64,000 nt of DNA from a virus. The notes beneath the pieces are model-generated. The model did not search any database. It saw only the letters and a list, made by a program, of their open reading frames with translations, and was not told the DNA's origin. This document shows, one piece after another, positions 4,110-19,973 of the stretch. The DNA is taken from IMG/VR virus record IMGVR_UViG_3300050821_017570, positions 123,140 to 187,139 of that record, one strand, 5' to 3'. The stretch's first letter is position 1; each line of letters opens with the position of its first letter. The translations under genes were made by a program, and so were the position numbers.

Positions 4110-4129
4110 CTCCTCTGGTTGACAGAATC
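4110..4129 (-). promoter_or_regulatory. shortened variant of the hairpin-SD cassette
   Basis: GAT TCTG TCAAC CAGA GGAG; 4-bp stem, 2 nt shorter than the consensus. Confidence 0.5.
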
Positions 4130-4144
4130 ATAGGGCCGGCGCTC

Positions 4145-4282
4145 TTACTCCTCGTGAGGTGGCGACGACTCACGCGAACGCCGGCGGCGATCTCTGAAGA
4201 CTTGTTTCGGTCGAGGCATCGGACGGCGGAATGCCGTCCTCAGCTCCTCCACCAGATTGGCCTTTGGATGCTTGCGCTTCAC
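4145..4282 (-). CDS. small basic protein, 45 aa (below the ORF-track cutoff)
   Basis: GTG overlaps the upstream TGA. Reads VKRKHPKANLVEELRTAFRRPMPRPKQVFRDRRRRSRESSPPHEE*. Confidence 0.55.
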   Translation of the reverse strand: MKRKHPKANLVEELRTAFRRPMPRPKQVFRDRRRRSRESSPPHEE

Positions 4283-4641
4283 GCCAGATCCGGCTGATAC
4301 CTGCAAAGCCAATCAACCTCCCAATGCGGATAGATCCGATCGTTGATGACCCCACACATACGGAGACCCGCGACCGAGTTACCCGTATGGACCTGAAACC
4401 GAACCGGTTTCGCGATCACCCCATCGTGGACCCATCGCTCGACCTGATCGATCACATCGATTCCTTCGATCCCAGGCCCGAGATCGTTATCGAAGCTACA
4501 GAACGCTACTGCGTCGTGCCGGAACAGCTCCAGCAGCGACTCGCCGGTCCGGCAGTGCAGCTGGTAGCCTTCCCTCATAGGGCGTCGGTCATCCAGCCAC
4601 ACCACCAGACCGCGACGGTAGCGGTTGGCGATGTCGTCCAT
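4279..4641 (-). CDS. cyclic-phosphate-processing receiver-like (cREC) domain protein
   Basis: The motifs VWLDDRR, SFDNDLG, GIDVIDQV and VHTGN match the LDDxR / SLDHDLG / HSxN pattern of this family. Confidence 0.75.
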   Translation of the reverse strand: MDDIANRYRRGLVVWLDDRRPMREGYQLHCRTGESLLELFRHDAVAFCSFDNDLGPGIEGIDVIDQVERWVHDGVIAKPVRFQVHTGNSVAGLRMCGVINDRIYPHWEVDWLCRYQPDLA

Positions 4642-4880
4642 CAGTCTGCCTTCTTGGCGACCTTCTCGGCGATCTCACCACGCCGGACCTTGCGATTCTT
4701 GGGCCGCCCCACCATGTGGAACTTGTTCTGGCCGTCGCGGTAGCCGTCGCTGACGCAGAACGAGGGTGGCCGACGGGACGGCTTGTTCTTGCCGGCGCCA
4801 TGGTCGCGGTGGCGCTCCGCGCCATTGAAGGGGCTGTAGGGCCAGCCACGGAGGCTCAGAGGGGACTTGTTGGCAGCCAT
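4641..4880 (-). CDS. hypothetical basic protein
   Basis: 79-aa ORF with a GGAG SD. Confidence 0.6.
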   Translation of the reverse strand: MAANKSPLSLRGWPYSPFNGAERHRDHGAGKNKPSRRPPSFCVSDGYRDGQNKFHMVGRPKNRKVRRGEIAEKVAKKAD

Positions 4881-4889
4881 GTTGGCTCC

Positions 4890-5276
4890 TTAGCAGCTAG
4901 TGGTGAAAACACACTGGATCAGTTCGAGCGGTCTATTATATGCATCACTACAGACGAGATAACGGGTTGATGGCGCAGCCGGATCGTAATAGCAGGTAGT
5001 GTAGGCATGTCGATCGGGGCTGACCTGCTGAACACCCACACAAATGTAACCTTCATGTTCGCCATTATCTCCTCTCCATATTTTTACCACTTCCCACTCT
5101 CGCTGAACCACAGGGTTATCTAGGTATCCGAGATTGTGCGGATTGGATATCCAGATCTGACCAATCTTCCATTGGGCGAGCCAATCTCTGCACAGGTTGG
5201 CGGCGCGAGTTTGGTTTTCGAAACCGGTTCTTCCTGGCATGGTGTACCTTTGGATTATGGTGGCGTGTAGAGACAC
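4890..5276 (-). CDS. hypothetical protein, paralog of 5255..5698
   Basis: Shares WxAQWKIGQxWxS ... EWxV ... LIQC with its neighbour. Confidence 0.7.
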   Translation of the reverse strand: MSLHATIIQRYTMPGRTGFENQTRAANLCRDWLAQWKIGQIWISNPHNLGYLDNPVVQREWEVVKIWRGDNGEHEGYICVGVQQVSPDRHAYTTCYYDPAAPSTRYLVCSDAYNRPLELIQCVFTTSC

Positions 5277-5698
5277 TGGATGAGTTGAACCCGACCGAAG
5301 GCAGTATAGAAGATACGATTTCGACCCTCGGTGTTATCGTAGGCGCATTCGCATTCTGGACCAATCCCTGGTGAGTTCGGTTTCAGCCCTACTCTTGTAT
5401 AACCCATAGTCGACATGCAAGAGACTACCCATTCCCCATGATGGGGTCCGAGGCGTGGGTATACTCTGTAGATTTCGAACGACTGCCAGACCTGCCCGAT
5501 CTTCCATTGGGCAAACCACTGCTGTCTGGCCGCATCCTGCAGGGCCGCGGCCTGCCGTTGAGCCGCCTGCGCGGCAGCCACACGCTCTGCCGCCATTCTG
5601 GCAGCTTCCGCTAGCTCAGTGGCCGCTACACCGAGTCGATGGCGATACAAACCCTTCGGCGCACTCCTGGGCTCTGGCCCAATCTGTAGGGTTGGCAT
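5255..5698 (-). CDS. hypothetical protein, paralog of 4890..5276
   Basis: WFAQWKIGQVWQS ... VQLIQCLY. Confidence 0.7.
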   Translation of the reverse strand: MPTLQIGPEPRSAPKGLYRHRLGVAATELAEAARMAAERVAAAQAAQRQAAALQDAARQQWFAQWKIGQVWQSFEIYRVYPRLGPHHGEWVVSCMSTMGYTRVGLKPNSPGIGPECECAYDNTEGRNRIFYTAFGRVQLIQCLYTPP

Positions 5699-5949
5699 TA
5701 GCTGCCCAGGTAGTGGGCGTATGCGGCTTCGATGTTCTGACGCTCTACCGCCGTCAGTGGGGCAATCGCCTCTGCCTTCTCGGCCAGCTGATCGGCCTTA
5801 CGTCGGTAGCCCCGCTTGGCCAGCTTCCTGGCGTCGCACAGGAATCGGTTTCTGACCCCGAATGGACTGGGCGTCCCCTCGGGTACCAATTCCTTCACAT
5901 TCACGTCACTGATCGCCCGGCGGGCTGCTTTTGCTTCGGCTGGATCCAT
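5698..5949 (-). CDS. hypothetical protein
   Basis: 83-aa ORF with stop/start overlaps on both sides. Confidence 0.7.
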   Translation of the reverse strand: MDPAEAKAARRAISDVNVKELVPEGTPSPFGVRNRFLCDARKLAKRGYRRKADQLAEKAEAIAPLTAVERQNIEAAYAHYLGS

Positions 5950-6254
5950 TACGGCTCCTCTTGGTAGGACCAGTCGCCATGGATGGCGTAGTGGTGTGAT
6001 TGGTAGGTGAACGTCAGTACCTGACTCGTCTCATGTACATCTGTGGCTCCGTGGAGCACCGCTGTATCGACTCCATTGGTCATCAGATGCACCGCATAGT
6101 GCTTGGTTGAGGGATGAAGATCCTGCCAAACCATCAGACTGAGGACAACAAACATGAACAAGAGCAGAACGATCCCAAACGAGTGCTCCTCAACCAGCAT
6201 GGCGAACCGTCGATAGCGGTCACCCGGCAGGGTGTTGTCTTCCGGCTCAGGCAC
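5949..6254 (-). CDS. single-pass membrane protein
   Basis: Hydrophobic stretch FGIVLLLFMFVVLSLMVW. Confidence 0.65.
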   Translation of the reverse strand: MPEPEDNTLPGDRYRRFAMLVEEHSFGIVLLLFMFVVLSLMVWQDLHPSTKHYAVHLMTNGVDTAVLHGATDVHETSQVLTFTYQSHHYAIHGDWSYQEEP

Positions 6255-6897
6255 GGATCGGCACCTTCAGCAGCAGTTCACCGTACTTGGCATACTGGGT
6301 GCCGTGGACAAACTCCAGATGGTGGTAGAACTCTGGCATCTGGTCGAGCTGCCGATCCTTCAGCAGTGTCTCCAGCAGCCACGACAGGCCATCATAGAGA
6401 GGTGGCTTGTTCTGCCGCTTCATGTCCGTGCTTGCGAGCCAGCGGGCCCCGATCGGCAGCACGATCGTCAGGAGCGCGTCAACCTCCAGGGTGGCCAACC
6501 GGGTGAGCGTGCCGGTCAGCTGATCGGTCGTTGGGCCCGGCCCCTTCATCACGAACATCAGGACCCGGAAGGCGATCGGAGTGGCGGTCACGGCGATCGG
6601 ATGATCCTCATGAATCAGGTCACAGACCCGACCGACGATCGCCGCACCGATACCCGCTGCCGCATCCAACATGATGTTGGCCAGCTCCTCCTCGATGCGA
6701 CCGTTCTGCAGGTCGGCTGACAGCCAGGCCCGAAAGTCTGCCGTGCAGACATTCAGGCCAGAGATCACGTGGGTGAGATCGGTGTGCTCGGCTGTCGTCA
6801 GCTTGCGATCCAGGCGTCGTTCCAGGACGGGAACGACCCCACGGAGCGCCTCCTTGGTTGCGATGTGAAGCTCGGCGTCGCCGATATTGGTAGGCAT
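6247..6897 (-). CDS. hypothetical helical protein
   Basis: Start at MPTNIG, 5 nt after a hairpin-SD cassette. Confidence 0.75.
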   Translation of the reverse strand: MPTNIGDAELHIATKEALRGVVPVLERRLDRKLTTAEHTDLTHVISGLNVCTADFRAWLSADLQNGRIEEELANIMLDAAAGIGAAIVGRVCDLIHEDHPIAVTATPIAFRVLMFVMKGPGPTTDQLTGTLTRLATLEVDALLTIVLPIGARWLASTDMKRQNKPPLYDGLSWLLETLLKDRQLDQMPEFYHHLEFVHGTQYAKYGELLLKVPIRA

Positions 6898-6902
6898 GGG
6901 TG

Positions 6903-6924
6903 CTCCTCGGACTGTGTCCGAATC
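6903..6924 (-). promoter_or_regulatory. hairpin-SD cassette
   Basis: GAT TCGGAC ACA GTCCGA GGAG. Confidence 0.8.
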
Positions 6925-6932
6925 AATGGTGG

Positions 6933-7088
6933 TCAACGGGTTGCAACGATGATGCCGCCGGCCGACACCAGGAGACGGTACTTACCGTCCCGTGGTGGCA
7001 GCACAGGGGGGACGGCGGGCGGTTGCCTCGGGTGCTGACGCGCTTCGAGTGCTGCCTTCTCACGCCGGACAATCTCATCCAGATTCAT
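6933..7088 (-). CDS. small hypothetical protein, 51 aa
   Basis: ATGA overlap with the upstream gene; MNLDEIVRREKAALEARQHP...IVATR*. Confidence 0.55.
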   Translation of the reverse strand: MNLDEIVRREKAALEARQHPRQPPAVPPVLPPRDGKYRLLVSAGGIIVATR

Positions 7089-7939
7089 GATGGTTCCTTT
7101 TGGACGTTCTCCAACTTCAGACGTTTCAATTCACGATGGTTGAGGGCCTGCTTGCGATAGGCGCGCCAACCCTTCCCCGCGCACAGAACCTCGTGTGCCT
7201 CTATCGGTCGGCCGAAGCCACCGCCGTCGCTGCCATAGAGGACTTGTTCGGCATCCCAGCTCTGGCAGAGCTGACCGATGATGCTGTACCGGCGCACCAG
7301 CAGATCCTCATAGATGCTCGGCTCGCCGGGTTCGAGATACACGTGGTACCAGGTTCCGTTGATCCGATGGATCTCAATCGTGGGGTCATCGGTTGGTCTC
7401 CGCACGGCCAGGATTCGGGCTGCCCGTACGGCCTGCCAGTCCTGTTGGGCCTTCGGCTTGCGCCGGTACCGACAGATCCGTCGGCTGCTTGGGTGGACGT
7501 AGTACTCGGTTCGGGCCCATCCCTGGCCAGCCGGCTCCCACTTGCCACTGTACCCGCACACCTCCAGCTGGGATCCGTTCATGCGGGTCTTGATGTCGAT
7601 GAAGTCGCCTAGATGCTGGTGAACGTGCTTCTCGATCGTCGTGCCGGTCGGTGAGACCTGCTGGCAGAGTTCGCTGTAGAAGCGATCCCAGGAGCGACCG
7701 AGGTTCTTGTGGATCAGGCCGCGAAGCGCGCCCAGATTCTCGCTGAATCGGCGCTTCTCGTCCCACAGGAACCGTTTGGTGAACGACTCGTGGCGTGGTT
7801 CGAACTCCATCTCGCCATAGTCCTCCCGGTCTTCCGGGTTACGGCTACGGTGGGACTTCTTCCAACCCTTCGGATACCCGGAGTCACGGGGGCCGCGACG
7901 GGCATCCTCGCAAATCACCTTTTTCAGATCCGATCGCAT
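7085..7939 (-). CDS. conserved hypothetical protein (ENLxxLR...GRxWDxxYSE...HVxQHL family)
   Basis: The pattern MRxDLxKVIxE...FSENLGALR...GRSWDRFYSELC...HVHQHL...YVHP is recognised from memory as a recurring bacterial/phage family of unknown function. Confidence 0.7.
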   Translation of the reverse strand: MRSDLKKVICEDARRGPRDSGYPKGWKKSHRSRNPEDREDYGEMEFEPRHESFTKRFLWDEKRRFSENLGALRGLIHKNLGRSWDRFYSELCQQVSPTGTTIEKHVHQHLGDFIDIKTRMNGSQLEVCGYSGKWEPAGQGWARTEYYVHPSSRRICRYRRKPKAQQDWQAVRAARILAVRRPTDDPTIEIHRINGTWYHVYLEPGEPSIYEDLLVRRYSIIGQLCQSWDAEQVLYGSDGGGFGRPIEAHEVLCAGKGWRAYRKQALNHRELKRLKLENVQKEPS

Positions 7940-7960
7940 TGGGTATACTTTACCTGAGGG

Positions 7961-8218
7961 TTAGAACTGAACTTCCCTGATACGTGAGATGGGTACGCGC
8001 TTGTCTTTCACAGGGTCGAATGGACGCCAGTAGTACATCCACATCTCTGCTACGGATGAGTTGGAACCCATCGACACCGTGATGTCTCGGGCTTGTACTT
8101 CCGTATCGTGCATGACTTTGTCGGCTGCGCGTTGGATGATTGCCATCGCTTCCTTATAGTCAATGTCACTGAGTTCTCCCTCCTCTATCACTAAAACCGA
8201 ATCCTTTACATACTTCAT
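7961..8218 (-). CDS. hypothetical protein
   Basis: 85-aa ORF with a CAGGAG SD. Confidence 0.7.
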   Translation of the reverse strand: MKYVKDSVLVIEEGELSDIDYKEAMAIIQRAADKVMHDTEVQARDITVSMGSNSSVAEMWMYYWRPFDPVKDKRVPISRIREVQF

Positions 8219-8240
8219 AGATTCTCCTGCAGATGGTGGG

Positions 8241-8492
8241 TTAAGGCTTCGTCAACTCTTGAACTTTTCGGGCAAGCGGACCGATCTCTGGATCAAGGCC
8301 GACTATGCTGCGAAGCGTACGATCCGCTAGCTTGCGAGCGGCTTCCTTGAGGTCCATTTGCTTATTTGCTTCGACCTCAAGCTGCTTGATTTGTGCCTTG
8401 GTATACGCGTGATTCCTTTCTAAAAGTGGAGGGGCCAGATGGAGTCGCACACACCAGAGGTCAGGCCTAGTGGGCCCAGACCTCACACCCAC
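8241..8492 (-). CDS. hypothetical protein
   Basis: ORF track; start uncertain. Confidence 0.5.
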   Translation of the reverse strand: MGVRSGPTRPDLWCVRLHLAPPLLERNHAYTKAQIKQLEVEANKQMDLKEAARKLADRTLRSIVGLDPEIGPLARKVQELTKP

Positions 8493-8567
8493 GTACCGTT
8501 TGCCCGCTAGGGACCGTTACGTGTTCTGGGAAGCCCCATGATCCCCCTCACGTGAGTGGGATGAATG

Positions 8568-9230
8568 CTATTGCGGAAGCGCGATCAGCTTGAATTCGCT
8601 ATTCGGAATCAGCTGGTCCTTCGTCTTGTCGATCGGCTGGTAGCGGGCTACCGTCTTCCCGGGCCGGCTGACCGCGAAGTCCAGCAGCTGGTCCATCGTC
8701 TCCGCCACCGTCGCGAGATTCGAGAACTCCAGGATGCTGTTGTAGCAGAACCAGTCACTGATGATCTCGCCATGCAGGCCGGCCTCGGATCCCTGCTTGG
8801 TCACGATGCGGACGCAGGTCGCCTTGATCAGCGGAGCATCATCGATCGTATCGGTGATGAACCGGTAGCCCAACCGGCCATGCTTGGCCCACACGGGCAG
8901 CTTGCGCACCAGGAGGGACCGCAGGAAGCAGTAGGGGGTGAGGCCACAATCCAGGTCGAGCGACACGTCGAAATACGTGCACCCGGCGGCCGGATTGGTT
9001 GGCACGACCGGCAAGATGGTACGCTGAAACAGGTTGCGGAAGTTGGCGCCACGGTAGCCGGACCCCTGCTTGATGAACGCCCCATTGATGATGGGTCGCT
9101 GGTCGAACAGCCGGACCCCATGGGGGCCGAGATTCATCGTCAGATCGAATGCCTTGGTCAGACGGGTCTGAAGGGTCAGTTGGTTGGCACTCGGCTTGAT
9201 CGCCACGTTGGTTGATTGGGTAGGGGTCAT
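8568..9230 (-). CDS. hypothetical protein
   Basis: 220-aa ORF with an ATGA overlap upstream. Confidence 0.7.
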   Translation of the reverse strand: MTPTQSTNVAIKPSANQLTLQTRLTKAFDLTMNLGPHGVRLFDQRPIINGAFIKQGSGYRGANFRNLFQRTILPVVPTNPAAGCTYFDVSLDLDCGLTPYCFLRSLLVRKLPVWAKHGRLGYRFITDTIDDAPLIKATCVRIVTKQGSEAGLHGEIISDWFCYNSILEFSNLATVAETMDQLLDFAVSRPGKTVARYQPIDKTKDQLIPNSEFKLIALPQ

Positions 9231-9472: not shown

Positions 9473-9493
9473 ACTGACTCCAATGGGTAAGGA

Positions 9494-9718
9494 TCAGGCT
9501 ACCTTTTTGATTGGCAAACGTCTGCGCCGTTTTGGTGGCGGGTCACCCATCATCTCGGGTGGTCGAACACCCTTGTAGCGGGGCAGATGTGGGCACCAGA
9601 GTGGCAGGATGATGCGGTCCTGTACCGCTCCGTTGACGATGAACGGATGGATCTCTGGCATGACCTTTTTAGGCCACGGAGGGATCCGGCCGTTTTCATC
9701 ACGCTGAATGATAGCCAT
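9494..9718 (-). CDS. hypothetical protein
   Basis: 74-aa ORF with a basic C-terminus. Confidence 0.55.
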   Translation of the reverse strand: MAIIQRDENGRIPPWPKKVMPEIHPFIVNGAVQDRIILPLWCPHLPRYKGVRPPEMMGDPPPKRRRRLPIKKVA

Positions 9719-9723
9719 CTGGA

Positions 9724-10050
9724 TTATTTCTTGTCAATCGTTTGGATGAAGAACTTGATCTTGAGCAGCAGCTCTTCGAGCGTGTCAGCCCTGAATTCCT
9801 GCTCGCCAGATGTTTCACCATTCTTGAATTTGACCGACCCGCTGACCGATGGTTTCCCATCATGCATGTAGATGAACATGTAGATGCGTTCCACATGTCG
9901 GGATCCGAACGGATCATTGAAAGGCGTGATCGCCTTGGCCTCTGGCGCCGCTCGGGCTGGCTCCGGCTTGGTTCGTGCCGGTTCCGCCTGAGGGGTGATC
10001 ACCCGGAGGGTCTGCATGCCAGCATCAAACAATCGCGCAAGTGCGCTCAT
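9724..10050 (-). CDS. hypothetical protein
   Basis: Start at MSALARL, overlapping the upstream stop codon. Confidence 0.7.
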   Translation of the reverse strand: MSALARLFDAGMQTLRVITPQAEPARTKPEPARAAPEAKAITPFNDPFGSRHVERIYMFIYMHDGKPSVSGSVKFKNGETSGEQEFRADTLEELLLKIKFFIQTIDKK

Positions 10051-10361: not shown

Positions 10362-10370
10362 GTGGCTGAA

Positions 10371-10844
10371 TTACGGCTTCACCGGCGTGGACTTCATCTC
10401 CTCGTCGATCGCCGCCACCATCGCCTCACCGGCCGTCTCGGGCACCGCTTGGGCCCGAGCCAACAGGCTGGCGAACCTCTCCACGTCACTGCGATCCACC
10501 TTCTCGACCGGAACCTCCGTCATCGGCTCGGTGACGGCCGCCTGATCGGTCGGATACTCCTCCTGGACCGCATCGATGGCCGCAATCGGAGAACCCGACG
10601 GTAGAGCCGATGGGTTGGTCGGAGTGGTGTCGTGCTGACCGATCAGTCGGCGGATCCGGCCCATCAGCCAGAACCCGACCGCCAGCCCGGCCACCAGCGT
10701 GATAAGGGCCAGTCGGGGGTGCCAGGGGTGGTGCAGGTTGTGAGCGAGCCAGCAGGTCACTAAGACGCTGCCAAACCCCTCAATGATCAGACAGTGCATA
10801 AGCACGATCAGACGCATCATGTCGGCAACGGGATTGCGGCTCAT
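10371..10844 (-). CDS. two-TM membrane protein
   Basis: Two hydrophobic helices and an acidic C-terminus. Confidence 0.7.
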   Translation of the reverse strand: MSRNPVADMMRLIVLMHCLIIEGFGSVLVTCWLAHNLHHPWHPRLALITLVAGLAVGFWLMGRIRRLIGQHDTTPTNPSALPSGSPIAAIDAVQEEYPTDQAAVTEPMTEVPVEKVDRSDVERFASLLARAQAVPETAGEAMVAAIDEEMKSTPVKP

Positions 10845-11125
10845 CGGGTCACCCGCGCCTTCTCGCGCGTCGTCAGTCGGGCCAGCTGGTTGGCCTGACC
10901 CAGCAGCTCGGTGACCTTCTCGTGGCGACCCAGCAGGTGGGCCTTACGGGCCTCGGTCAGGCAGTGGGCACGAGTGCCCCACGACTGACCGGGCTTCTGG
11001 GGCCCCTCGGCGAGCGCACGACGCGCGTGGCGTCCCGCCTCGTCGGTCTTCTGGGCCGCTTGGGCGGCGGCCCGACGGCGCATGTGGCCGTCACCGATCG
11101 GAATCTTCGTCGCATGTGCAGGCAT
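10841..11125 (-). CDS. hypothetical protein
   Basis: 94-aa ORF following a hairpin-SD cassette. Confidence 0.7.
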   Translation of the reverse strand: MPAHATKIPIGDGHMRRRAAAQAAQKTDEAGRHARRALAEGPQKPGQSWGTRAHCLTEARKAHLLGRHEKVTELLGQANQLARLTTREKARVTR

Positions 11126-11131
11126 AGTGGT

Positions 11132-11153
11132 CTCCTCCAGGGTTTCTGGAATC
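11132..11153 (-). promoter_or_regulatory. hairpin-SD cassette (5 of 6 pairs)
   Basis: GAT TCCAGA AAC CCTGGA GGAG. Confidence 0.7.
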
Positions 11154-11185: not shown

Positions 11186-11791
11186 CTACGACAACCCCAG
11201 CCGACGCAGCTGGTCGTCGAGATCCTCATGACCCACGATGAGCTTCCACGCCGCCATCTCGGCGCGGATCTCCGCTGGCGTCGCGACCCGCAGGTCGGAA
11301 TCCTGGCTCAGATAGCAGTCTTCGTTCAGCACATGGTCGTCCTGACGGTAGATCACATGGGCATCGTCGTCTTCGGTCCTAGAGACGATGACGAGACGAT
11401 CGTCCGAGAAGTCGACCAGACCGACCGAGCCGGCATCCTCGACGATGTAGGCCTGACCGACGGCGAAACTGAACGGGTGGTCGGTCTCGTCCTCGGTGTC
11501 GTCGTCATCGAGCTTCAGCTTCAGGGCGTCGACCTCGACGTCCATGAGGTTGGCGATCAGATGGACGATCGCCTTCTTGTGACCGCTGTCACCGAAATGG
11601 GCCTCGATGAGCCCACCCATTCGCTCGGCCCGTCGGGCCGGGCTACCGGCGGCAGCCGGCTTCGCGGCCTTGGCCGGCTTGGGAGCCGCGGCTGCCGCCA
11701 TCTTTCGTATCAGGGCGGCGTTGAGACGAAGTGCGGTCTTCTGGATGGCGGTGATCTGGGTCAGCTTGGTGGGAATGTCAAGATTTGGCAT
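11186..11791 (-). CDS. hypothetical protein with an Ala/Lys linker and acidic C-terminal domain
   Basis: Start at MPNLDI; the track start at 11944 overlaps another gene. Confidence 0.7.
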   Translation of the reverse strand: MPNLDIPTKLTQITAIQKTALRLNAALIRKMAAAAAPKPAKAAKPAAAGSPARRAERMGGLIEAHFGDSGHKKAIVHLIANLMDVEVDALKLKLDDDDTEDETDHPFSFAVGQAYIVEDAGSVGLVDFSDDRLVIVSRTEDDDAHVIYRQDDHVLNEDCYLSQDSDLRVATPAEIRAEMAAWKLIVGHEDLDDQLRRLGLS

Positions 11792-11853
11792 AGTAGGATT
11801 CCGTTTCCGACAACGTCGGGGTTGGGTTGGTAGGTGATGAAAACAACAGCAGG

Positions 11854-12765: not shown

Positions 12766-12771
12766 GACTGG

Positions 12772-13098
12772 TCAAACCAGACAGTGGATGACCCACAGGA
12801 TCATCATCGTCATGAGCGGTGTGAATATCGCGTACGCCACCACGAAGGCATACTCGTTGTCCTGCTTCGGCGTCACTGGGGCTGGCCAGATCATGCCGAT
12901 GAGGATACGCAGCAGGATCGCCTGCTTGAAGCTCAGCATGGGAAGCGCGAACGGCAGGAGCGGCATGAACCACTCCCACGCCTTGAACGTCAGCAGCCCC
13001 CACAGGAGGACTGAAAACGGCATCATCAGAAAGATCAAGCACATCAGGCCGATTGCTGACATGAGCTTGTCGAACGAATCGGTAGAATGGTCAGACAT
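12772..13098 (-). CDS. multi-pass membrane protein
   Basis: Three hydrophobic helices and a WEWF-P motif; follows a hairpin-SD cassette. Confidence 0.75.
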   Translation of the reverse strand: MSDHSTDSFDKLMSAIGLMCLIFLMMPFSVLLWGLLTFKAWEWFMPLLPFALPMLSFKQAILLRILIGMIWPAPVTPKQDNEYAFVVAYAIFTPLMTMMILWVIHCLV

Positions 13099-13104
13099 TT
13101 GAAT

Positions 13105-13126
13105 CTCCTCTGGCGGTGCCAGAATT
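13105..13126 (-). promoter_or_regulatory. hairpin-SD cassette
   Basis: AAT TCTGGC ACC GCCAGA GGAG. Confidence 0.8.
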
Positions 13127-13151
13127 GGTTGGTTGGGTGGATTGAAGCCTA

Positions 13152-13520
13152 CTACCGCACGGTCTCGAAACGGGTCGCCAGAAACCGATCGGACGGCTTC
13201 TCGACGAACCGTATGACGTCACGATCCACGAACCTGGCGAAGCGCCAACTGTCCTTGGTCAGCGCGACCCGGTATTCCTCAGCCTGCGCGGTATCGGCAT
13301 GCAGGGGAACCAGGATGACGCGCACCCGACGGGTCGGATGCTCCGGAGTCGACTCGATCAGATGGAATCGGGCGGCGAAACGGATCCGACGGTTTCCGAT
13401 GAGGGAGCGATCGAGATCCAGCATCAGAAGACCAGCGGAGTAGGGGCCGAAAAACTGCCGGAACAGTCGTTCGGCCTCTTCGCGCGAAATCAGGTTGAGG
13501 GGTTGGGTATCGGTTGGCAC
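13152..13520 (-). CDS. hypothetical protein
   Basis: GTG start 6 nt after the cassette GGAG. Confidence 0.7.
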   Translation of the reverse strand: MPTDTQPLNLISREEAERLFRQFFGPYSAGLLMLDLDRSLIGNRRIRFAARFHLIESTPEHPTRRVRVILVPLHADTAQAEEYRVALTKDSWRFARFVDRDVIRFVEKPSDRFLATRFETVR

Positions 13521-13526
13521 GGAAGC

Positions 13527-13548
13527 CTCCTCTGGCTGAGCCAGAATC
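13527..13548 (-). promoter_or_regulatory. hairpin-SD cassette
   Basis: GAT TCTGGC TCA GCCAGA GGAG. Confidence 0.8.
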
Positions 13549-13561
13549 ATAGGTTGGTTGG

Positions 13562-13768
13562 TTATCCTTCTTCGTAGTCGGGACACTTCTGGGCCTGCTC
13601 CATCTTCACGGACAGCTCGACCCGTACGTCATTTTCAGACGTTGACAGCTCCCAATGCCGTTTTAGGCAGGTGATTGAGCTGTCCATGCCAGGCGTGACA
13701 TCTGAGTATCCCGCATACCCGAGGTCTACCTGACAATGCCGACACTTGAGGCAATGGTGTTCGCTCAT
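13562..13768 (-). CDS. small Cys-rich, putatively Zn-binding protein
   Basis: MSEHHCLKCRHC...C...C; ATGA overlap with the upstream gene. Confidence 0.65.
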   Translation of the reverse strand: MSEHHCLKCRHCQVDLGYAGYSDVTPGMDSSITCLKRHWELSTSENDVRVELSVKMEQAQKCPDYEEG

Positions 13769-14517
13769 GCGAAATATAGATCTTTTGCTATGCATTTCAT
13801 CAGATCCAATCGGCTGTGGGTACCATCTGAGCAATGACGTCCATTACGGTGCCACACGCTCTGTACAACACGATTACCGAGACGATGGCCATGCCAATAC
13901 CATTCGGATCGGCTTATGTTGTCTCGTTCCAAGTCGAGTTCCCATACGGTACCTTCACGATCCACCCAGCGGCTAGCCAACTCGATGGGCTCACCAGTCA
14001 GCCAATGGCGTGGACCAGTGGACTCGTCCTTTGTCTCCATTTCTGGTACGTTGACAAGATCGTCATCGTCCCCTGGATAGCGCTTGGTCGTACCGTCGGC
14101 ATAACGCTCTTCTATGATCTCATAGTTTGATTCACGTATCGCTACGGCGATCGGGTGCACTCCCAACAGATCCGTGGCAAGGATACGCGCCTTGCGCCCA
14201 TCCCGTGTCTGTACTGGTTTCTTTGGATCGAACGGCATCTTCTGGTCAGGTGTCTTCTGACCCGGCATCTCGACCAGAGAGATGAGGTTGTGGTGGTCCG
14301 ACTTGTTGAGAAAGGCGTGCCCATCAAGGGTCCAACTCACAGAGCTGGCACCAGAGGCGCTGAACAGAAGTCCGCACCACCGCATTCTGCTGAGTTCATG
14401 CCCCAAGGACGCGCCGGTGATAAGGGCGATGCATCCCGCCTCACCGGTGGTCCAGTACTGACCGACCTCGATTTTCAAACCGGTACCGAAATGATGTCCC
14501 ACATTGCTATCCGGCAT
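13765..14517 (-). CDS. protein with three tandem SH3-like 'TRDGR' modules
   Basis: Three similar modules of about 65 aa (..GQYWTT..; ..VQTRDGRKARI..; ..WVDREG..), each ending DG...(N/D)L. Confidence 0.75.
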   Translation of the reverse strand: MPDSNVGHHFGTGLKIEVGQYWTTGEAGCIALITGASLGHELSRMRWCGLLFSASGASSVSWTLDGHAFLNKSDHHNLISLVEMPGQKTPDQKMPFDPKKPVQTRDGRKARILATDLLGVHPIAVAIRESNYEIIEERYADGTTKRYPGDDDDLVNVPEMETKDESTGPRHWLTGEPIELASRWVDREGTVWELDLERDNISRSEWYWHGHRLGNRVVQSVWHRNGRHCSDGTHSRLDLMKCIAKDLYFA

Positions 14518-14523
14518 ACTCTG

Positions 14524-14545
14524 CTCCTCTGGCTGAGCCAGAATC
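14524..14545 (-). promoter_or_regulatory. hairpin-SD cassette
   Basis: GAT TCTGGC TCA GCCAGA GGAG. Confidence 0.8.
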
Positions 14546-14550
14546 ATGGG

Positions 14551-14850: not shown

Positions 14851-14875
14851 ACTGCCTCCCTGGGTGGCTGGGTTG

Positions 14876-15343: not shown

Positions 15344-15376
15344 ATAGTGGTTTCTATGGTTGGTGGTGTGGGAAGA

Positions 15377-15673
15377 TCAGATGGGGGTGAGATCGAAATT
15401 CTTCTCGATCCGAAAGAAGTGGAGACGCAACCGATCGGTTTTGTGCTCGTCACGCAGGTAGAGCGCTACCATCAGACGGTTGAACTGGTGTCCGTTACGG
15501 ACTCCATAGTCGACGAATAACTCGATGATATACTTGCGGCCGTATCCGTACGAGATCCTAACCCCGCGGAGTGCGTCGAGGTTACGTTGGGGCGTCTCGA
15601 TCGCGTGCCTGAAGAGTGTTTCTGCCTGATCGAGGTAGGCAGTCACACAGGGTATACCGGTTTGGTTTGGCAT
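15377..15673 (-). CDS. hypothetical protein, paralog of 14551..14850
   Basis: FNRLMVALY...HFFRIEKNFDLT; preceded by a half cassette ACCGCCAGAGGAG. Confidence 0.75.
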   Translation of the reverse strand: MPNQTGIPCVTAYLDQAETLFRHAIETPQRNLDALRGVRISYGYGRKYIIELFVDYGVRNGHQFNRLMVALYLRDEHKTDRLRLHFFRIEKNFDLTPI

Positions 15674-15690
15674 GTGGGCTCCTCTGGCGG

Positions 15691-15894
15691 TTATATCAGA
15701 ACCACAACGTCGAGCTGATTGGGTTGGATGGAGGCAACTCTGGCTTCCCTGACATCCGCAACCGCTCGTGCTACTTCTAGTGAGCTGAAGCGAGTCGCAT
15801 CGCGGGCCGCATCATGCCAACCACCGTCCGTCACATCATAGAAGCGAAAATGCTGAGAGTCAGGTCCGGGAAAGGGTCGGGCGACAACAAACAT
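15691..15894 (-). CDS. small protein, paralog of 18971..19192
   Basis: FY.VT.G.W/F.....AT.F..L..A.A.A. Confidence 0.7.
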   Translation of the reverse strand: MFVVARPFPGPDSQHFRFYDVTDGGWHDAARDATRFSSLEVARAVADVREARVASIQPNQLDVVVLI

Positions 15895-15899
15895 AGCGT

Positions 15900-15921
15900 C
15901 TCCTCTGACAGTGTCAGAATT
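15900..15921 (-). promoter_or_regulatory. hairpin-SD cassette
   Basis: AAT TCTGAC ACT GTCAGA GGAG. Confidence 0.8.
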
Positions 15922-15929
15922 GTTGATGG

Positions 15930-16466
15930 TTAGAAACAGATTCCGTACCAGATCGAATCCCTAGATCGGGTTGGGACCAACCCAACCAGCTCGCTAGGAA
16001 TGAATCCATAGGAGGGGTAGCAGGTTGGGTCAAATGGCGATGGCGCGCGGAACCTCGGGGTCAGTCGTACCTGAGCCACCATGTCTAAAAACTGATCGAT
16101 CGACATGTTGTCTTTGAGTCGGTTACACCGAAGACAAAGAGGTCGAAGGTTATTGATGTCATTACGACTACCGTAGGGGCATTTCGACCGTGGTACAATA
16201 TGGTCCAGGGTCATCCGCTCCCCACTGTCCGTGTAGAGACCGAAGTGCCAGAAGCCATCCTGCATGGTGGGTCGGAAATGCGTTCCCACCACGCCGCAAC
16301 CATAGCAGGTCTGACCAAGCTTGTGAAACATCCTGAGTTTCTCACGGTTCCTTTGACCGAACCCAAACATCATCCCATCGATCTGCATGGGCGTGGAGAT
16401 CTGTCCCTTTATGAGATCGAAAACAAAGCTGAGCGGATAGCGCACCTCTCCTGATGCGATCAGCAT
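15930..16466 (-). CDS. HNH endonuclease
   Basis: CYGCG ... MTLDHIVPRSK ... NDINNLRPLCLRCNRLKDN; ATG 6 nt after the cassette GGAG. Confidence 0.85.
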   Translation of the reverse strand: MLIASGEVRYPLSFVFDLIKGQISTPMQIDGMMFGFGQRNREKLRMFHKLGQTCYGCGVVGTHFRPTMQDGFWHFGLYTDSGERMTLDHIVPRSKCPYGSRNDINNLRPLCLRCNRLKDNMSIDQFLDMVAQVRLTPRFRAPSPFDPTCYPSYGFIPSELVGLVPTRSRDSIWYGICF

Positions 16467-16472
16467 GGTTAC

Positions 16473-16494
16473 CTCCTCGGGCAGCGCCCGAATC
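16473..16494 (-). promoter_or_regulatory. hairpin-SD cassette
   Basis: GAT TCGGGC GCT GCCCGA GGAG. Confidence 0.8.
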
Positions 16495-16510
16495 GTGGGT
16501 TGAAAGAAAC

Positions 16511-16654
16511 GTAACCTCAATCGCCGACGGGATTCGAACCCGTAGGGAGCACCTACGTCGTGCTATAGTGCTCCGTCGGATTTCGCCATGGGCACGTCCC
16601 ATCTTGGCTAAGCCGCGACTGCATCTGCCGTTTTGCTACAGCGATTGAGGTTAC
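16511..16654 (-). ncRNA. tRNA-Leu(UAA)-like RNA with a 25-nt anticodon insert, long variable arm, extended acceptor stem and no CCA
   Basis: Acceptor ATCGCTG/CGGCGAT; Leu-type D arm GCA-AAACGGCAGA-TGC; T arm ACGGG-TTCGAAT-CCCGT; variable stem GGAGCAC/GTGCTCC; the flanks pair for 9 more bp (GTAACCTCA/TGAGGTTAC). Confidence 0.8.
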
Positions 16655-16667
16655 AGGAAACGCTGAC

Positions 16668-16892
16668 TCAGCGGGTCGCCAGCACGACCGCTTCGGATCC
16701 GATGTAGGCGACTTCGGTCGCACCGGGGAAACAGGTACCCTGATGGGCTGCCTGGTTGATCTCCTGCTGGGAGATCTGGCGCTCGGCCTCACGCTCCGAA
16801 CACCCACGAGCCTTCATCGTGCTGGCGATGAGGGTCCGACGGATCTGCAGGGTGCGGGCGAGACGGACGGCGGCATTGGTCTGGATACGCAT
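16668..16892 (-). CDS. hypothetical protein, 74 aa
   Basis: MRIQTNAAV start 7 nt after the cassette GGAG; an in-frame upstream extension to 17054 also exists. Confidence 0.7.
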   Translation of the reverse strand: MRIQTNAAVRLARTLQIRRTLIASTMKARGCSEREAERQISQQEINQAAHQGTCFPGATEVAYIGSEAVVLATR

Positions 16893-16899
16893 GGGATGA

Positions 16900-16921
16900 C
16901 TCCTCGGGCTATGCCCGAATC
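16900..16921 (-). promoter_or_regulatory. hairpin-SD cassette
   Basis: GAT TCGGGC ATA GCCCGA GGAG. Confidence 0.8.
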
Positions 16922-17108
16922 GGTGGTGGTTGAATGAAACGAAACGAAGAACGCGTGTTTCAAGTCCCGCCGGACCAGCGATCTCCACAGCAACGGTTGC
17001 AAACTGTCGGGGCCGGCAGTGATAGTACGCCGTCACCATTTTGACTGCCACCATACGAGGGAATGGGTCGTATGGTGTCTCTCCTGGGGTTAGCCAGGGA
17101 AAACCGAA

Positions 17109-17396
17109 TCAGAACAGACGAAGGCCACGCAGGATCGAGCGCATCTCGTGCTGGCGGCGCTCCTGCTCCTGACGGATCTGCTTGGCCCGGGCCTTCTCGG
17201 CCCGCTGCATGTTCCGCAGGTTCACCATGGCGGCCACGTGGGCGGCCCTGGCCTCGTAGGCCCGAGCACCCTGCTGGTCGCCCAGCCGACGGCACTCGGC
17301 CGCCTGGCTGATCAGGTCGCGGCGTCCGTTTTCGAGACTCCCCCACATGGTAATGACGTTCTCGGGGGTCAGGGTGGAATGGTCACTGTGACTCAC
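17109..17396 (-). CDS. small coiled-coil protein
   Basis: GTG start 6 nt after the cassette GGAG. Confidence 0.7.
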   Translation of the reverse strand: MSHSDHSTLTPENVITMWGSLENGRRDLISQAAECRRLGDQQGARAYEARAAHVAAMVNLRNMQRAEKARAKQIRQEQERRQHEMRSILRGLRLF

Positions 17397-17402
17397 AAAA
17401 GC

Positions 17403-17424
17403 CTCCTCTGGCTGGGCCAGAATA
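17403..17424 (-). promoter_or_regulatory. hairpin-SD cassette
   Basis: TAT TCTGGC CCA GCCAGA GGAG. Confidence 0.8.
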
Positions 17425-17441
17425 GTGGGGTGATGGACAGC

Positions 17442-17494
17442 AAAAAGAAAAGGATCCCCCACGCGCCTGGCTCGTTAGGCCAGACACGTGGGGG
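17442..17494 (-). terminator. rho-independent terminator (RNA unit 2)
   Basis: 16-bp stem with 2 G-U pairs and loop CUAACGA, then AUCCUUUUCUUUUU. Confidence 0.8.
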
Positions 17495-17633
17495 AAGAAG
17501 AGTACGTTTGGGTTAACGGCCCCTTTCGGGGGAGTTAGTGAAACAGGCTCAGGGGGAGTCCTTGTGGACATTCCTGAACGGATTGATCCTCCTCCTTGGT
17601 AGGAATCGATGGATCGTTCTTTTGGTGGATACC

Positions 17634-17702
17634 AAAAGAAAAAGGTTGCCCACAGCCACATACCCAGCTCCCGCAACAGAGCCAGATATGGGCTGTGGGC
17701 AA
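17634..17702 (-). terminator. terminator-like long hairpin (RNA unit 1)
   Basis: 24-bp stem with 3 G-U pairs and a 1-nt bulge, followed by CCUUUUUCUUUU. Confidence 0.7.
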
Positions 17703-17784
17703 TCTTTCGTAACGGCCTTTCGGGAGTTACGTTGCGGACAGGGGGTAGTCCTTGCGAACATTCCCTGCTTATGAGATTGTGGCG

Positions 17785-18045
17785 CTACTTCGCGCGCTTG
17801 ACCGACCAGAGGCCCTGACGGACCTGATACCAGATGAAACCCGTGGGGAGTTTCGTATCAGGGTTGGTTGGTGCCCAGCAGGGTCCGACGAACCGCTCGA
17901 ACCTACCGGGTGACACTTCGGGTAACTTGACACGGTTCCAGAAACGGTGATTGACCTCGATCCATTGGATCGCCGGATCAGACTCCGCAGGAGACTGACT
18001 GCCGGAATGCGTCTGTTTTGATGATGTAGCCACGTTTGGCGACAT
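17785..18045 (-). CDS. hypothetical protein
   Basis: 86-aa ORF; weak SD. Confidence 0.5.
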   Translation of the reverse strand: MSPNVATSSKQTHSGSQSPAESDPAIQWIEVNHRFWNRVKLPEVSPGRFERFVGPCWAPTNPDTKLPTGFIWYQVRQGLWSVKRAK

Positions 18046-18298
18046 ACGATGATACTTTCTCTTTTACAATGAAGGTATTTGGAGTTCGCGGAGTTTGGGA
18101 TGTCAGCCCAACCCTCCTACCATAACCTTCAGAGCGTGTCAGATGTCGACGGAACGACATATCCCGCCGGAGGCTCGCTCTAACGTTGCGAGCTTTGTTA
18201 CCGTGGATCATGCTCCACCGCAACCATTTCACGTGCCACGAGTATCATGGCAGAGGCGCCGGCTAGCGTAACCGGACGAACCGGAGGATTACGATCCC

Positions 18299-18670
18299 TC
18301 AAACGACCGATACAGCGTACCAATGCCCTGCTTCAAAATACTCCTTCCCAATCAGTACCCACTCTGGCGGTGGGGGTTCACCGGGTGTCAGCCACCCGGC
18401 GGGAACGAATGTATCTCGTTCAAACGGCGCGATTATTGAATCGGCCTCCTGGTGCATCAGCACAACTGTGACGAGCGGGATATCGTCATCCCGCAACTCG
18501 CAATGTGCTTCGCCATATTCGGTCGAGTCTCTGCTACCGAGTTTCTGGAGAAGCAGCTGATGCAGCTCCTCCGTCCACTCCTTGCCGCCGCGCTGACGGA
18601 GCGCGGCTCTGATGTCAGCGAAGCTTTTCAAGGGGTGTCCTTTCGCAGATATAGCAGATGTAGCCCTCAC
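18299..18670 (-). CDS. hypothetical protein
   Basis: ORF track; start uncertain. Confidence 0.6.
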   Translation of the reverse strand: MRATSAISAKGHPLKSFADIRAALRQRGGKEWTEELHQLLLQKLGSRDSTEYGEAHCELRDDDIPLVTVVLMHQEADSIIAPFERDTFVPAGWLTPGEPPPPEWVLIGKEYFEAGHWYAVSVV

Positions 18671-18974
18671 GTTCCCATGTGTAGAGACCGTGAAGACACC
18701 ATATGCCGTGTGGGTGGGGATAGAACTCCTCTATCCATGGATGCTGGGGCGATACCAGCGGCTCAACGAGACAGACCCTCACCTCATCGCCGGCGAGAAT
18801 CAAATGGTGGGTCCACTTACGGAAATGGTATTCGCGAACCAAACGATTGGTTAGATTGTGGAACAAGTCCCACGCCACCGTCTGGCCAAACTGTCGAACC
18901 ATAAGGGCTCGCGCTGCATGATACCCAAGTATTGGACGGGTTGGTTGCCCCGGAATGAGGAAACCGGCCGTCAT
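18615..18974 (-). CDS. hypothetical protein with C-terminal C/H...CxxC
   Basis: 119 aa; GGAGG SD; ATGA overlap. Confidence 0.65.
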   Translation of the reverse strand: MTAGFLIPGQPTRPILGYHAARALMVRQFGQTVAWDLFHNLTNRLVREYHFRKWTHHLILAGDEVRVCLVEPLVSPQHPWIEEFYPHPHGIWCLHGLYTWEREGYICYICERTPLEKLR

Positions 18975-19192
18975 ACCTCCAACACACGCGACGCACGTGG
19001 AAATCCAGCCAGATTATCCAAATGCTTCGCTAGGGCCTCCGCATCACCGAGTTTGAGAAACTCAGTCGCCTGATGCCTGGCGCCTACGAACCGACCTACG
19101 GTAACGTTGTAGAAGACATTGTTGCCTTGAACAACGCGGCTGATGACGTACGTGGGGCTGATTCCGCTGGTGTGGTCGTATGGCTGGATCAT
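18971..19192 (-). CDS. small protein, paralog of 15691..15894
   Basis: VFYNVTVGRF....QATEFLKLGDAEALA. Confidence 0.7.
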   Translation of the reverse strand: MIQPYDHTSGISPTYVISRVVQGNNVFYNVTVGRFVGARHQATEFLKLGDAEALAKHLDNLAGFPRASRVLEV

Positions 19193-19419
19193 AAGGCCTC
19201 AATCAACGCGGTCGCATCCTCACCACGCTGGAACGCCTCGGCAATTTCGACATGCCTACATGCTTCCAACGTCCACCGTATGGCTGACTGGGCTTCGAAG
19301 TCAGCCATACGGTGATGGTTGAGAGCGACTGAGATCTGGAGGCTATCGAGTCTCTTCAACGCCATATGGGCACAATCGAGTGCTCGTTTGGCGAAGAATT
19401 CGGCATCGGGGTCTAACAT
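19189..19419 (-). CDS. hypothetical protein
   Basis: ATG 5 nt after the cassette GGAG. Confidence 0.7.
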   Translation of the reverse strand: MLDPDAEFFAKRALDCAHMALKRLDSLQISVALNHHRMADFEAQSAIRWTLEACRHVEIAEAFQRGEDATALIEAL

Positions 19420-19424
19420 CTGTT

Positions 19425-19446
19425 CTCCTCCGGCGGAGCCGGAATC
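19425..19446 (-). promoter_or_regulatory. hairpin-SD cassette
   Basis: GAT TCCGGC TCC GCCGGA GGAG. Confidence 0.8.
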
Positions 19447-19479
19447 GTCGGTGTGAGAGGGGTGAAAGGTACGAAGGAA

Positions 19480-19812
19480 TCAGATGAGTTGTTTGCCAGA
19501 CTCCTCGTCGCGGAAGTCGGTTGGCCACCATTGGAGCACGATCGGTGTGACCCACTGGGTACCGAGGAAGTCGACGGTCCAGCGGTATCGCCAGCCCTTG
19601 TAATCGCCTTGGGGGCGATATCCCTTGAGACGAACTGGTGTTTGGATCAAATCCACAACGAAAAGAAATGGCCCGCCACTGGGGGTGGTGCGCCATTCGG
19701 TGTAGGCGGCCTTGCCAAACCTCGTATACCTCTCAGTCACGAGTTTGGTCGCCAGATCACCCCGTGGGTAGGTTCTGAAGAGAAGCGCCTCCATCTCACT
19801 GTCCGTTATCAT
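19480..19812 (-). CDS. hypothetical protein
   Basis: Start at MITDSE with an AGAGGA SD; the track's N-terminal extension is an overlap artefact. Confidence 0.65.
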   Translation of the reverse strand: MITDSEMEALLFRTYPRGDLATKLVTERYTRFGKAAYTEWRTTPSGGPFLFVVDLIQTPVRLKGYRPQGDYKGWRYRWTVDFLGTQWVTPIVLQWWPTDFRDEESGKQLI

Positions 19813-19945
19813 CAGGATCCTCTTCTGTCCCGTCGTCGGACTCCTCTTCAGCTTCTTCTTCCTCCGCTTGTTTGGCAGCTTCGTATTCCGCTTCTTCTCT
19901 GGTTCGACCAAGCTGTATGAGTTGTTCGAGTAGTGTCTTCTCCAT
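19796..19945 (-). CDS. 49-aa highly acidic protein (not in the ORF track)
   Basis: MEKTLLEQLIQLGRTREEAEYEAAKQAEEEEAEEESDDGTEEDPDDNGQ*, directly after a cassette. Confidence 0.75.
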   Translation of the reverse strand: MEKTLLEQLIQLGRTREEAEYEAAKQAEEEEAEEESDDGTEEDPDDNGQ

Positions 19946-19951
19946 TGGTGC

Positions 19952-19973
19952 CTCCTCGGGCTTGGCCCGAATC
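19952..19973 (-). promoter_or_regulatory. hairpin-SD cassette
   Basis: GAT TCGGGC CAA GCCCGA GGAG. Confidence 0.8.

Follow-up and report, generated by a model that had tools for sequence, protein, structure and literature searches.

Eleven copies of a 22-nt cassette, NAT-TCNNNN-NNN-NNNNGA-GGAG, in which a small hairpin runs directly into the Shine-Dalgarno (SD) sequence of the gene that follows, lie on the minus strand, and only there, within one 16-kb block of an uncultured phage genome, IMG/VR record IMGVR_UViG_3300050821_017570 (187,139 bp, G+C 56.5%, estimated completeness ~95%). The window analysed here is the final 64 kb of that record (genome 123,140-187,139), and positions below count from its first nucleotide unless they are said to be of the genome. 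The cassette is real and structure-constrained, and we hold it very probable that its role, whatever the details, is played at the RNA level.

Copies, statistics and covariation

A reading of the DNA made from its letters alone (below, the sequence-only reading) had listed these eleven copies, and all of them were found, each on the minus strand with a start codon 5-7 nt on. The motif also exceeds chance frequency. The pattern TC-N11-GAGGAG has exactly 11 matches against a mean of 2.9 in shuffled sequence, where none of 100 shuffles reaches 11, and the whole genome has 11 hairpins of 6-3-6 form with perfect Watson-Crick pairing that run straight into GGAG, against 0.5 +/- 0.65 (maximum 2) in genomes simulated with a first-order Markov model. 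Ten of these 11 hairpins have a start codon 5-7 nt on, and all ten are cassette copies.

The stems had been described as differing in sequence while staying complementary in a fixed 6-3-6 geometry. This stands for ten of the 11 copies, which have a 6-bp stem and a 3-nt loop; it fails for the copy at 11132..11153, where an A.C mismatch at the closing pair leaves effectively a 5-bp stem with a 5-nt loop. At three of the six stem pairs (3, 4 and 5) both partners vary, pair 3 being U-A in 5 copies, G-C in 4 and C-G in 2. Among the 66 stem cells (six pairs in each of 11 copies), 65 (98.5%) are paired, every one of them Watson-Crick, with zero G.U. None of 500 shuffles attains the observed covariation score, and moving the 3' partner by 1-3 columns cuts pairing to 24-47%. 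A covariance model built on the 11 copies and run over the 187-kb genome recovers those copies at 32-42 bits together with one degenerate copy at 17.8 bits (E 0.02); it finds no further convincing match in the whole genome, and the virion module is without any copy, as the sequence-only reading had it.

The invariant columns are A, T, T and C before or in the stem and G, A, G, G, A and G after. In RNA terms, (G/A)AUU is present in 10/11 copies, and AUU followed by C in all 11. The constancy of GAGGAG is explained by its being the SD, and that of the C by its pairing with a G of the SD. Loops are variable, with about 9 types among the 11 copies (on the template strand TTG, GGA, TGG, TAT, AGC, AGT, TGA twice, GGT, GTT and TGT). 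The figures given earlier for them are confirmed: the closing pair is C-G in 10/11 copies, and in 8/11 the coding strand has C at the centre of the loop, hence G on the template. The copies at 14524 and 13527 have identical 22-nt cores, loop included. The copies are listed below, with the distance from GGAG to the start codon and the open reading frame (ORF) that each one leads.

19952..19973 (minus): GAT-TCGGGC-CAA-GCCCGA-GGAG; ATG 6 nt on; 49-aa ORF 19945..19796
19425..19446 (minus): GAT-TCCGGC-TCC-GCCGGA-GGAG; ATG 5 nt on; 76-aa ORF 19419..19189, then overlapping coupled genes
17403..17424 (minus): TAT-TCTGGC-CCA-GCCAGA-GGAG; GTG 6 nt on; 95-aa ORF 17396..17109
16900..16921 (minus): GAT-TCGGGC-ATA-GCCCGA-GGAG; ATG 7 nt on; 74-aa ORF 16892..16668
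16473..16494 (minus): GAT-TCGGGC-GCT-GCCCGA-GGAG; ATG 6 nt on; 178-aa HNH endonuclease 16466..15930
15900..15921 (minus): AAT-TCTGAC-ACT-GTCAGA-GGAG; ATG 5 nt on; 67-aa ORF 15894..15691
14524..14545 (minus): GAT-TCTGGC-TCA-GCCAGA-GGAG; ATG 6 nt on; 250-aa ORF 14517..13765; upstream stop 8 nt before the stem
13527..13548 (minus): 22-nt core the same as in the 14524 copy; GTG 6 nt on; 122-aa ORF 13520..13152
13105..13126 (minus): AAT-TCTGGC-ACC-GCCAGA-GGAG; ATG 6 nt on; 108-aa membrane protein, phrog_2169, 13098..12772
11132..11153 (minus): GAT-TCCAGA-AAC-CCTGGA-GGAG; ATG 6 nt on; 94-aa ORF 11125..10841, then a coupled 157-aa gene
6903..6924 (minus): GAT-TCGGAC-ACA-GTCCGA-GGAG; ATG 5 nt on; 216-aa ORF 6897..6247, first of an overlapping run

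Four partial copies had also been named. Those near 4110 and 15680 proved to be degenerate copies and that near 20556 a half copy; the one near 11806 turned out to be a different hairpin without GGAG.

4101..4129 (minus; model match 4110-4137): degenerate copy, GAT-TCTG-TCAAC-CAGA-GGAG, GTG; 116-aa ORF 4103..3753
15671..15703 (minus): degenerate copy with enlarged loop, TCTG...GCCAGA-GGAG, ATG; 98-aa ORF 15673..15377
20548..20578 (minus): half copy, with CA-rich tract, 3' arm GCCGGA and GGAG, no 5' arm; first gene of the block, 173 aa, 20550..20029
11789..11830 (minus): different element, with CA-rich tract, 5-bp triloop hairpin CCGAC-GTT-GTCGG, weak GGAA, ATG; 201-aa ORF 11791..11186

Coupling to start codons and leader sequence

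In all 11 copies the gap between stem and GGAG is 0 nt and the start codon stands 5-7 nt past GGAG (ATG in 9, GTG in 2; ORFs of 49-250 aa), whereas the distance from the upstream stop codon to the stem runs from ~8 to 113 nt. Because the register with SD and start is fixed and the distance to the stop is not, the cassette belongs to the downstream start and not to the 3' end of the upstream gene. Conservation ends at the 22-nt core: the flanks show no relation to one another and there are no paralogues among the 11 downstream proteins, so each of the 11 genes keeps the motif independently. An origin of the copies by segmental duplication was rejected on the same grounds, no flanks being identical and no paralogy being present.

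The sequence-only reading had placed a C/A-rich tract before each copy, and the 20 nt before NAT are indeed poor in G (7%, block 29%) and rich in C (42%, block 29%). In about six copies there is a U-rich, GTTTC-type stretch 18-32 nt upstream. Genes of the block that lack the hairpin (starts 20550, 14850, 8218, 5949, 4880 and 2746) still have the CA-rich tract and, at the spacing of the cassettes, GGAG(G); GGAG therefore behaves as an SD and not as part of a promoter, and the hairpin is something added to it. Ribosome sites elsewhere in the genome, before replication and virion genes, are mostly weak (TAGG, AAGG or AGGA). The genome thus holds two classes of ribosome site, a CA-rich leader with GGAG(G) at 5-7 nt in the block and weak sites in the remainder.

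Cassettes head either single genes or overlapping runs (for example 6897->6254->5949->5698), the overlapping genes of which are presumably translationally coupled. Four of the 11 cassette genes, and two genes behind partial copies, begin with Met/Val-Pro (ATGCC/GTGCC), and the cassette signal may extend weakly into the second codon.

Setting of the gene block

The minus strand holds nearly all genes of the phage genome. Baseplate-type and other large proteins occupy 28-64 kb of the window; DNA polymerase A, SbcC and ribonucleotide reductase are encoded at genome 85-115 kb; and the small minus-strand ORFs run between these virion-type and replication modules, over ~0.5-20.6 kb of the window. 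Since the block begins past a strand switch at ~20.6-21.5 kb and continues into the replication module, its genes are probably early genes.

Ten of the 11 cassette-led proteins have no family match, apart from the one PHROG membrane protein, and the eleventh is the HNH endonuclease. Neither the 216-aa protein nor a neighbouring 821-aa protein has homologues among 5.8 billion proteins, a search for loci related to those of the 250-aa and 216-aa cassette-led proteins returned none, and megablast of the block against GenBank phages gave no match. Contigs of the same phage are present in ERZ27253637, ERZ27253820 and SRR7093794, and gene calls on independent assemblies of it give identical starts for the 216-aa and 108-aa genes. 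Over the whole genome, relative to base composition, GATC (2.25-fold) and AGATCT (2.2-fold) are over-represented and CTAG (0.4) and GCGC (0.6) under-represented.

Transcription signals and predicted folding

Sigma-70-like sites are not enriched in the block (8 found, 7.7 expected), and apart from CA-richness the 107-nt stretches ahead of the copies have no k-mer in common. The block has a single clean intrinsic terminator, at 17495-17455 (minus; 17 pairs and a U-run). With no enriched promoters, no shared motif and one terminator, most cassettes should be internal to long transcripts, and transcription of the block apparently yields, for the most part, long polycistronic RNA, presumably made by the host polymerase.

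The terminator ends ~30 nt before the cassette at 17403-17424, within a ~330-nt non-coding gap (17442-17767), and the gene after it requires either read-through or a promoter not visible in the sequence. The best sigma-70-like site of the block is at 9708-9737 (minus; TTGACA-18-TATCAT, 11/12 positions), amid small genes. Immediately upstream of the HNH-gene cassette, a tRNA-like sequence at 16511-16654 (minus) has a perfect T arm (GGTTCGAATCC), and neither ARAGORN nor Rfam gives a tRNA call for it; were this element processed as a tRNA, it would create a new 5' end ~25 nt before that cassette.

Folded with 80 nt of upstream and 60 nt of downstream context, the hairpin is predicted with a mean pair probability of 0.62-0.98 and a dG of -5.2 to -8.9 kcal/mol. 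Of the 11 minimum-free-energy folds, five have a seventh pair (U.G), possible in RNA only, between the first G of GGAG and the invariant U that precedes the stem; the six core pairs, having no G.U among their 66 cells, could form equally in DNA. The predicted unpaired probability is 0.44-0.95 over the 20 nt before NAT and 0.11-0.53 over the SD, which is thus not especially open.

Several other identities for the cassette were considered and rejected. A CcrM/GANTC reading of GATTC is at odds with an observed/expected ratio of 1.04 for GANTC and with three of 11 copies that lack the G. A sigma-54 reading, suggested by TGGCAC in one copy, was dismissed by eye, there being no TTGC at the proper spacing. 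On neither strand does a U-run follow the hairpin, which disposes of an intrinsic terminator, and an RNase III site was set aside because a 6-bp stem is too short for that enzyme.

Relatives and other occurrences

Relatives were reached through the DNA polymerase: four IMG/VR records (39-44% identity), two of them near complete at 191.5 and 179 kb, and one syntenic 118-kb Logan contig (49%), whose small-gene block was reached by walking. None of these five relatives has the cassette or an analogous repeated hairpin-SD family, and their small genes use plain AAGG/GAGG sites. Absent from all five, the cassette is best seen as a lineage-specific innovation.

Among the matches listed, those of the exact pattern in IMG/VR (ATTCNGGCNNNGCCNGAGGAG) and in metagenome contigs (GATTCNGGCNNNGCCNGAGGAG) are single in each contig and were treated as chance. 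Re-scanning 104 of the matched stretches with the covariance model gave none with a second copy. Two unrelated contigs of sample JGI24159J19872 share ~130 nt of similar sequence (L034:3314-3343, minus, and L060:1989-2018, plus) that includes GATTCGGGC-NAA-GCC(C/A)GA-GGAG, then 6 nt and the ATG of a very short ORF; it is an instance of a repeated hairpin-SD element from a different organism. In the 179-kb relative (IMGVR_UViG_3300023202_000205) a repeat at least 33 nt long, which includes CACAGATACCAAGCCTCTGAGCGGGCATAGCG, is present in ~31 copies. Most of them stand in an array at ~165,060-172,830 with a period of ~73 nt, and others are scattered near 36.5, 104.7-105.7, 111.4, 125.7 and 129.4 kb of that genome. 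The array looks CRISPR-array-like or like some other tandem element. At 119.2-120.8 kb the relative also has a repeat with a 24-nt period.

Comparison with start-associated repeats

Judged by analogy, the closest functional analogue of the cassette is the SAS/ESAS of cluster K mycobacteriophages, in which 11-19 copies of a 13-bp AGGAG repeat precede non-structural genes by 3-7 bp (PMC3203893, PMC12699233) and the function of which is still unproven (Pope et al. 2011, PMC3203893; PMC12699233). Like SAS, the cassette is phage-specific, keeps one orientation, has an AGGAG core, precedes unrelated genes and prefers ATG, and its placement, 5-7 nt from the start with all copies on the minus strand in one small-gene block, is matched too. 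SAS, however, is a fixed 13-bp GGGATAGGAGCCC (at most 2 mismatches) with no covarying stem, so that only (A)GGAG is shared, and the 17-bp inverted repeats of ESAS do not support RNA pairing. The sequences are unrelated, and the phage and its host probably are too. The cassette is a known kind of phage signal in a new form, its hairpin both covarying and fused to the SD.

A proposed post-transcriptional start cassette

The sequence-only reading had preferred a role at the RNA level, and that preference is favoured indirectly by the fixed register with SD and start, the absence of an upstream promoter motif and the hairpin predicted in context. Within this class we tentatively favour, by analogy with known processing and stabilising signals, a post-transcriptional start cassette composed of an RNase E-type cut site, a 5' hairpin and a strong SD; we find this plausible, and it could well be wrong. 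The G-poor, C/A/U-rich tract upstream would remain single-stranded, and a host RNase E-type endonuclease would cleave at the invariant A-U-U (RN↓WUU or RAUUW core, the arrow marking the cut) just 5' of the stem. The released product would start with a stable 6-7-bp hairpin (dG -5 to -9 kcal/mol) bearing a 1-2-nt overhang, a 5' end that 5'-end-dependent decay would sense poorly. At zero distance past the hairpin would come the SD, A/GGAG(G), 5-7 nt from the start and much stronger than in the rest of the genome; hairpin and bound ribosome would jointly stabilise the mRNA, and each cassette would mark off one translational unit, be it a gene or an overlapping coupled run. We infer the cleavage, stability and translation steps, as we do the 'early' label of the block.

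Classical 5' stabilisers, such as those of ompA, aprE and T7 gene 10, consist of a hairpin and a ribosome site. The cassette resembles them, as it does engineered insulating hairpins, in its small stable hairpin followed by a strong SD; they are single instances at a primary 5' end, whereas the cassette is multi-copy and intercistronic. The RNase E motif (G,A)AUU(U,A) was defined on T4 gene 32 mRNA and requires nearby structure, and the core seen in vivo is RN↓WUU with a key U at +2, the ArcZ site being GA↓UUU (PMC5222698; bioRxiv 10.1101/341578). In RNAI and MicL a stem-loop beside the site sets the position of the cut (bioRxiv 10.1101/341578), and a leader cut by RNase E turns T4 gene 32 mRNA into a stable species (PMC3014915). 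With the -71 site of gene 32 the cassette has in common a G-poor, putatively single-stranded leader, (A/G)AUU in 10/11 copies and an adjoining stable hairpin.

Several observations weigh against this proposal. The fifth position of RAUUW is C in all 11 copies and not A or U. The proposed site overlaps the base of the stem, whereas in gene 32 it is ~4 nt away and mapped RNase E cuts are usually a few nt from the guiding hairpin (bioRxiv 10.1101/341578): U+2 (or U+3) would be the first stem base, and the optional U.G seventh pair would bury U+1 as well. A stem that works purely in RNA would be expected to include some G.U pairs, yet the 66 stem cells have zero, which fits a DNA palindrome equally well. 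Folding does not predict an especially open SD, and the five relatives lack the cassette. Such a cut would also presuppose a host RNase E-type enzyme. That the cassette goes further, as a portable 'mRNA unit definer' of one phage lineage in which cut, cap-like hairpin and ribosome site are combined with a handle for shut-off by a phage factor, we think improbable; to our knowledge no phage has been described with one signal that unites processing, stabilising and shut-off.

Alternative explanations

The main rival to the cut-and-protected start does without cleavage. The cassette would be a translation-initiation insulator or standby module, its fast-folding hairpin walling off the SD from variable upstream coding sequence, its G-poor tract acting as a 30S standby or S1 landing site, and its SD-anti-SD helix perhaps stacking on the stem, such that every unrelated gene gains the same context-independent strong initiation region. 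The invariant 0-nt junction of stem and SD and the near-optimal start spacing speak for this, as do the G-depleted leader with its frequent GTTTC stretch and the retention of CA-rich tract and GGAG by hairpin-less genes of the block; synthetic biology, too, places an 'insulating hairpin' before designed ribosome-binding sites to make expression independent of context (bioRxiv 10.1101/2020.07.22.216051). We nonetheless rate it unlikely, given that folding predicts no particularly accessible SD, that the stem base (U-A, C-G and the optional U.G) ties up the GA of GAGGAG and at times the first G as well, which makes for a weaker SD, and that the invariant A-U just 5' of the stem is left unexplained. 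That A-U would be read, together with the shape of the stem and GGAG, if the cassette were instead the operator of a trans-acting RNA-binding protein, of phage or host origin, that switches the gene set off (or on) together, blocking or cutting the SD in the manner of T4 RegA/RegB. The motif's restriction to a single block of small, co-oriented ORFan genes, such as a temporal class would form, agrees with such a regulator, and so do the invariant single-stranded flanks around a variable stem and the loop-centre C in 8/11 copies. T4 silences its early mRNAs by way of the GGAG in their translation-initiation regions, where RegB cuts GG↓AG, strong sites being GG↓AGRAYARAA with an A-rich 3' context (PMC3014915). 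The likeness, drawn already by the sequence-only reading, ends with the GGAG of all 11 cassettes. The bases after it are not A-rich (gcacca, aacag, gctttt, tcatccc, gtaacc, acgct, cagagt, gcttcc, attcaa, accact, caccc), and the genome has no match to RegB (PF10715) at E <= 1, a search that a very divergent analogue could escape. Varied loops leave little for sequence-specific recognition of the loop, no candidate RNA-binding protein was identified and nearly all block proteins are without family match, and we regard an operator of this kind as quite unlikely. Far less credible is a hairpin-stabilised pause that would hold RNA polymerase at each start codon. The nascent hairpin would end 10-13 nt ahead of the start codon's U/G, as in a his-type pause joined to an elemental pause of the form G(-10)...Y G; the cassette's stem, GGAG (4), spacer (5-7) and AU would put the RNA 3' end 11-13 nt from the stem. 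This geometry is all that commends the idea, while the SD would still sit inside the polymerase, so that the benefit is doubtful, and the conserved AU 5' of the stem again goes unexplained; we consider it extremely improbable.

An element acting in DNA could be a promoter of the N4 type, extruded as a hairpin or cruciform and with its +1 within GGAG, or else a palindrome to which a dimeric protein binds as to an operator, comparable to the stoperators of L5 or the conserved inverted repeats of phiC31. Since the 65 paired stem cells are all Watson-Crick and none is G.U, the hairpin would form equally in DNA and on either strand, and the 6-bp stem (5-7 bp in N4), the 3-nt loop and the mostly central template G (8/11) resemble N4 promoters (PMC4496689). 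Those promoters, however, need a virion RNA polymerase (vRNAP) of ~3,500 aa and a loop of -10G/-11G/-12A with a sheared G:A, as well as -8G/-9C for extrusion and recognition, and it is this unusual loop that allows so short a hairpin to extrude (PMC4496689). The N4 precedent invoked by the sequence-only reading did not survive comparison. The longest ORF in the whole genome is 1,395 aa, and the ten largest proteins outside the window have no RNA polymerase match in Pfam. Profile searches of the genome for sigma-70 region 2 and for PF00940 (T7-like RNA polymerase) gave no match, the latter being a weak search in which control genomes also gave none. No loop or stem bases are conserved, GGA is the template loop in only 1/11 copies, and there are 11 cassettes, each fused to an SD, against three N4 promoters. 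A +1 at the N4 distance would delete the SD, yet hairpin-less genes use the same GGAG spacing, and a dimeric protein operator needs no compensatory changes at three stem positions. A DNA-level element is, in our estimate, highly improbable. The cassette might also, compatibly with any of these roles, be a recombination junction, a short shared sequence for the gain, loss and swap of small genes. The genes behind it are unrelated ORFans, among them that of a free-standing endonuclease of the HNH homing type, and two copies share their whole 22-nt core with the loop. The promoter-stem-loop cassettes (PeSLs) of T4-type phages mark indel borders (PMC2839356, PMC4122927), and they too are repeated stem-loop/SD/start composites before small ORFan early genes. 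In a PeSL, however, the stem-loop is followed by an AT-rich region with a sigma-70 -35/-10 promoter and only then by the SD (PMC2839356, PMC4122927), whereas the cassette hairpin touches the SD (0 nt in 11/11), which leaves no room for such a promoter, and no upstream promoter motif is shared; as a precedent for the cassette, which the sequence-only reading had made of them, the PeSLs do not fit. Nor does a variable middle leave more than ~10 shared bases of 22 nt, which is little homology; covariation reflects selection on pairing, which recombination alone does not require; and among the relatives reached, none of which bears the motif, no swap was observed. We accordingly give a junction role very little credence.

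Significance

As it stands, and as far as sequence comparison reaches, the cassette is a well-documented lineage-specific regulatory repeat whose function is only proposed. If the post-transcriptional start cassette is the true model, it would suggest a mechanism for start-associated repeats that are so far unexplained, such as SAS, and the cassette would be usable as a minimal insulator part for engineering. In the phage itself, a natural part of 22 nt would make any gene within a polycistronic early transcript independently stable and strongly translated, which would help explain how phages express rapidly changing ORFan takeover genes.

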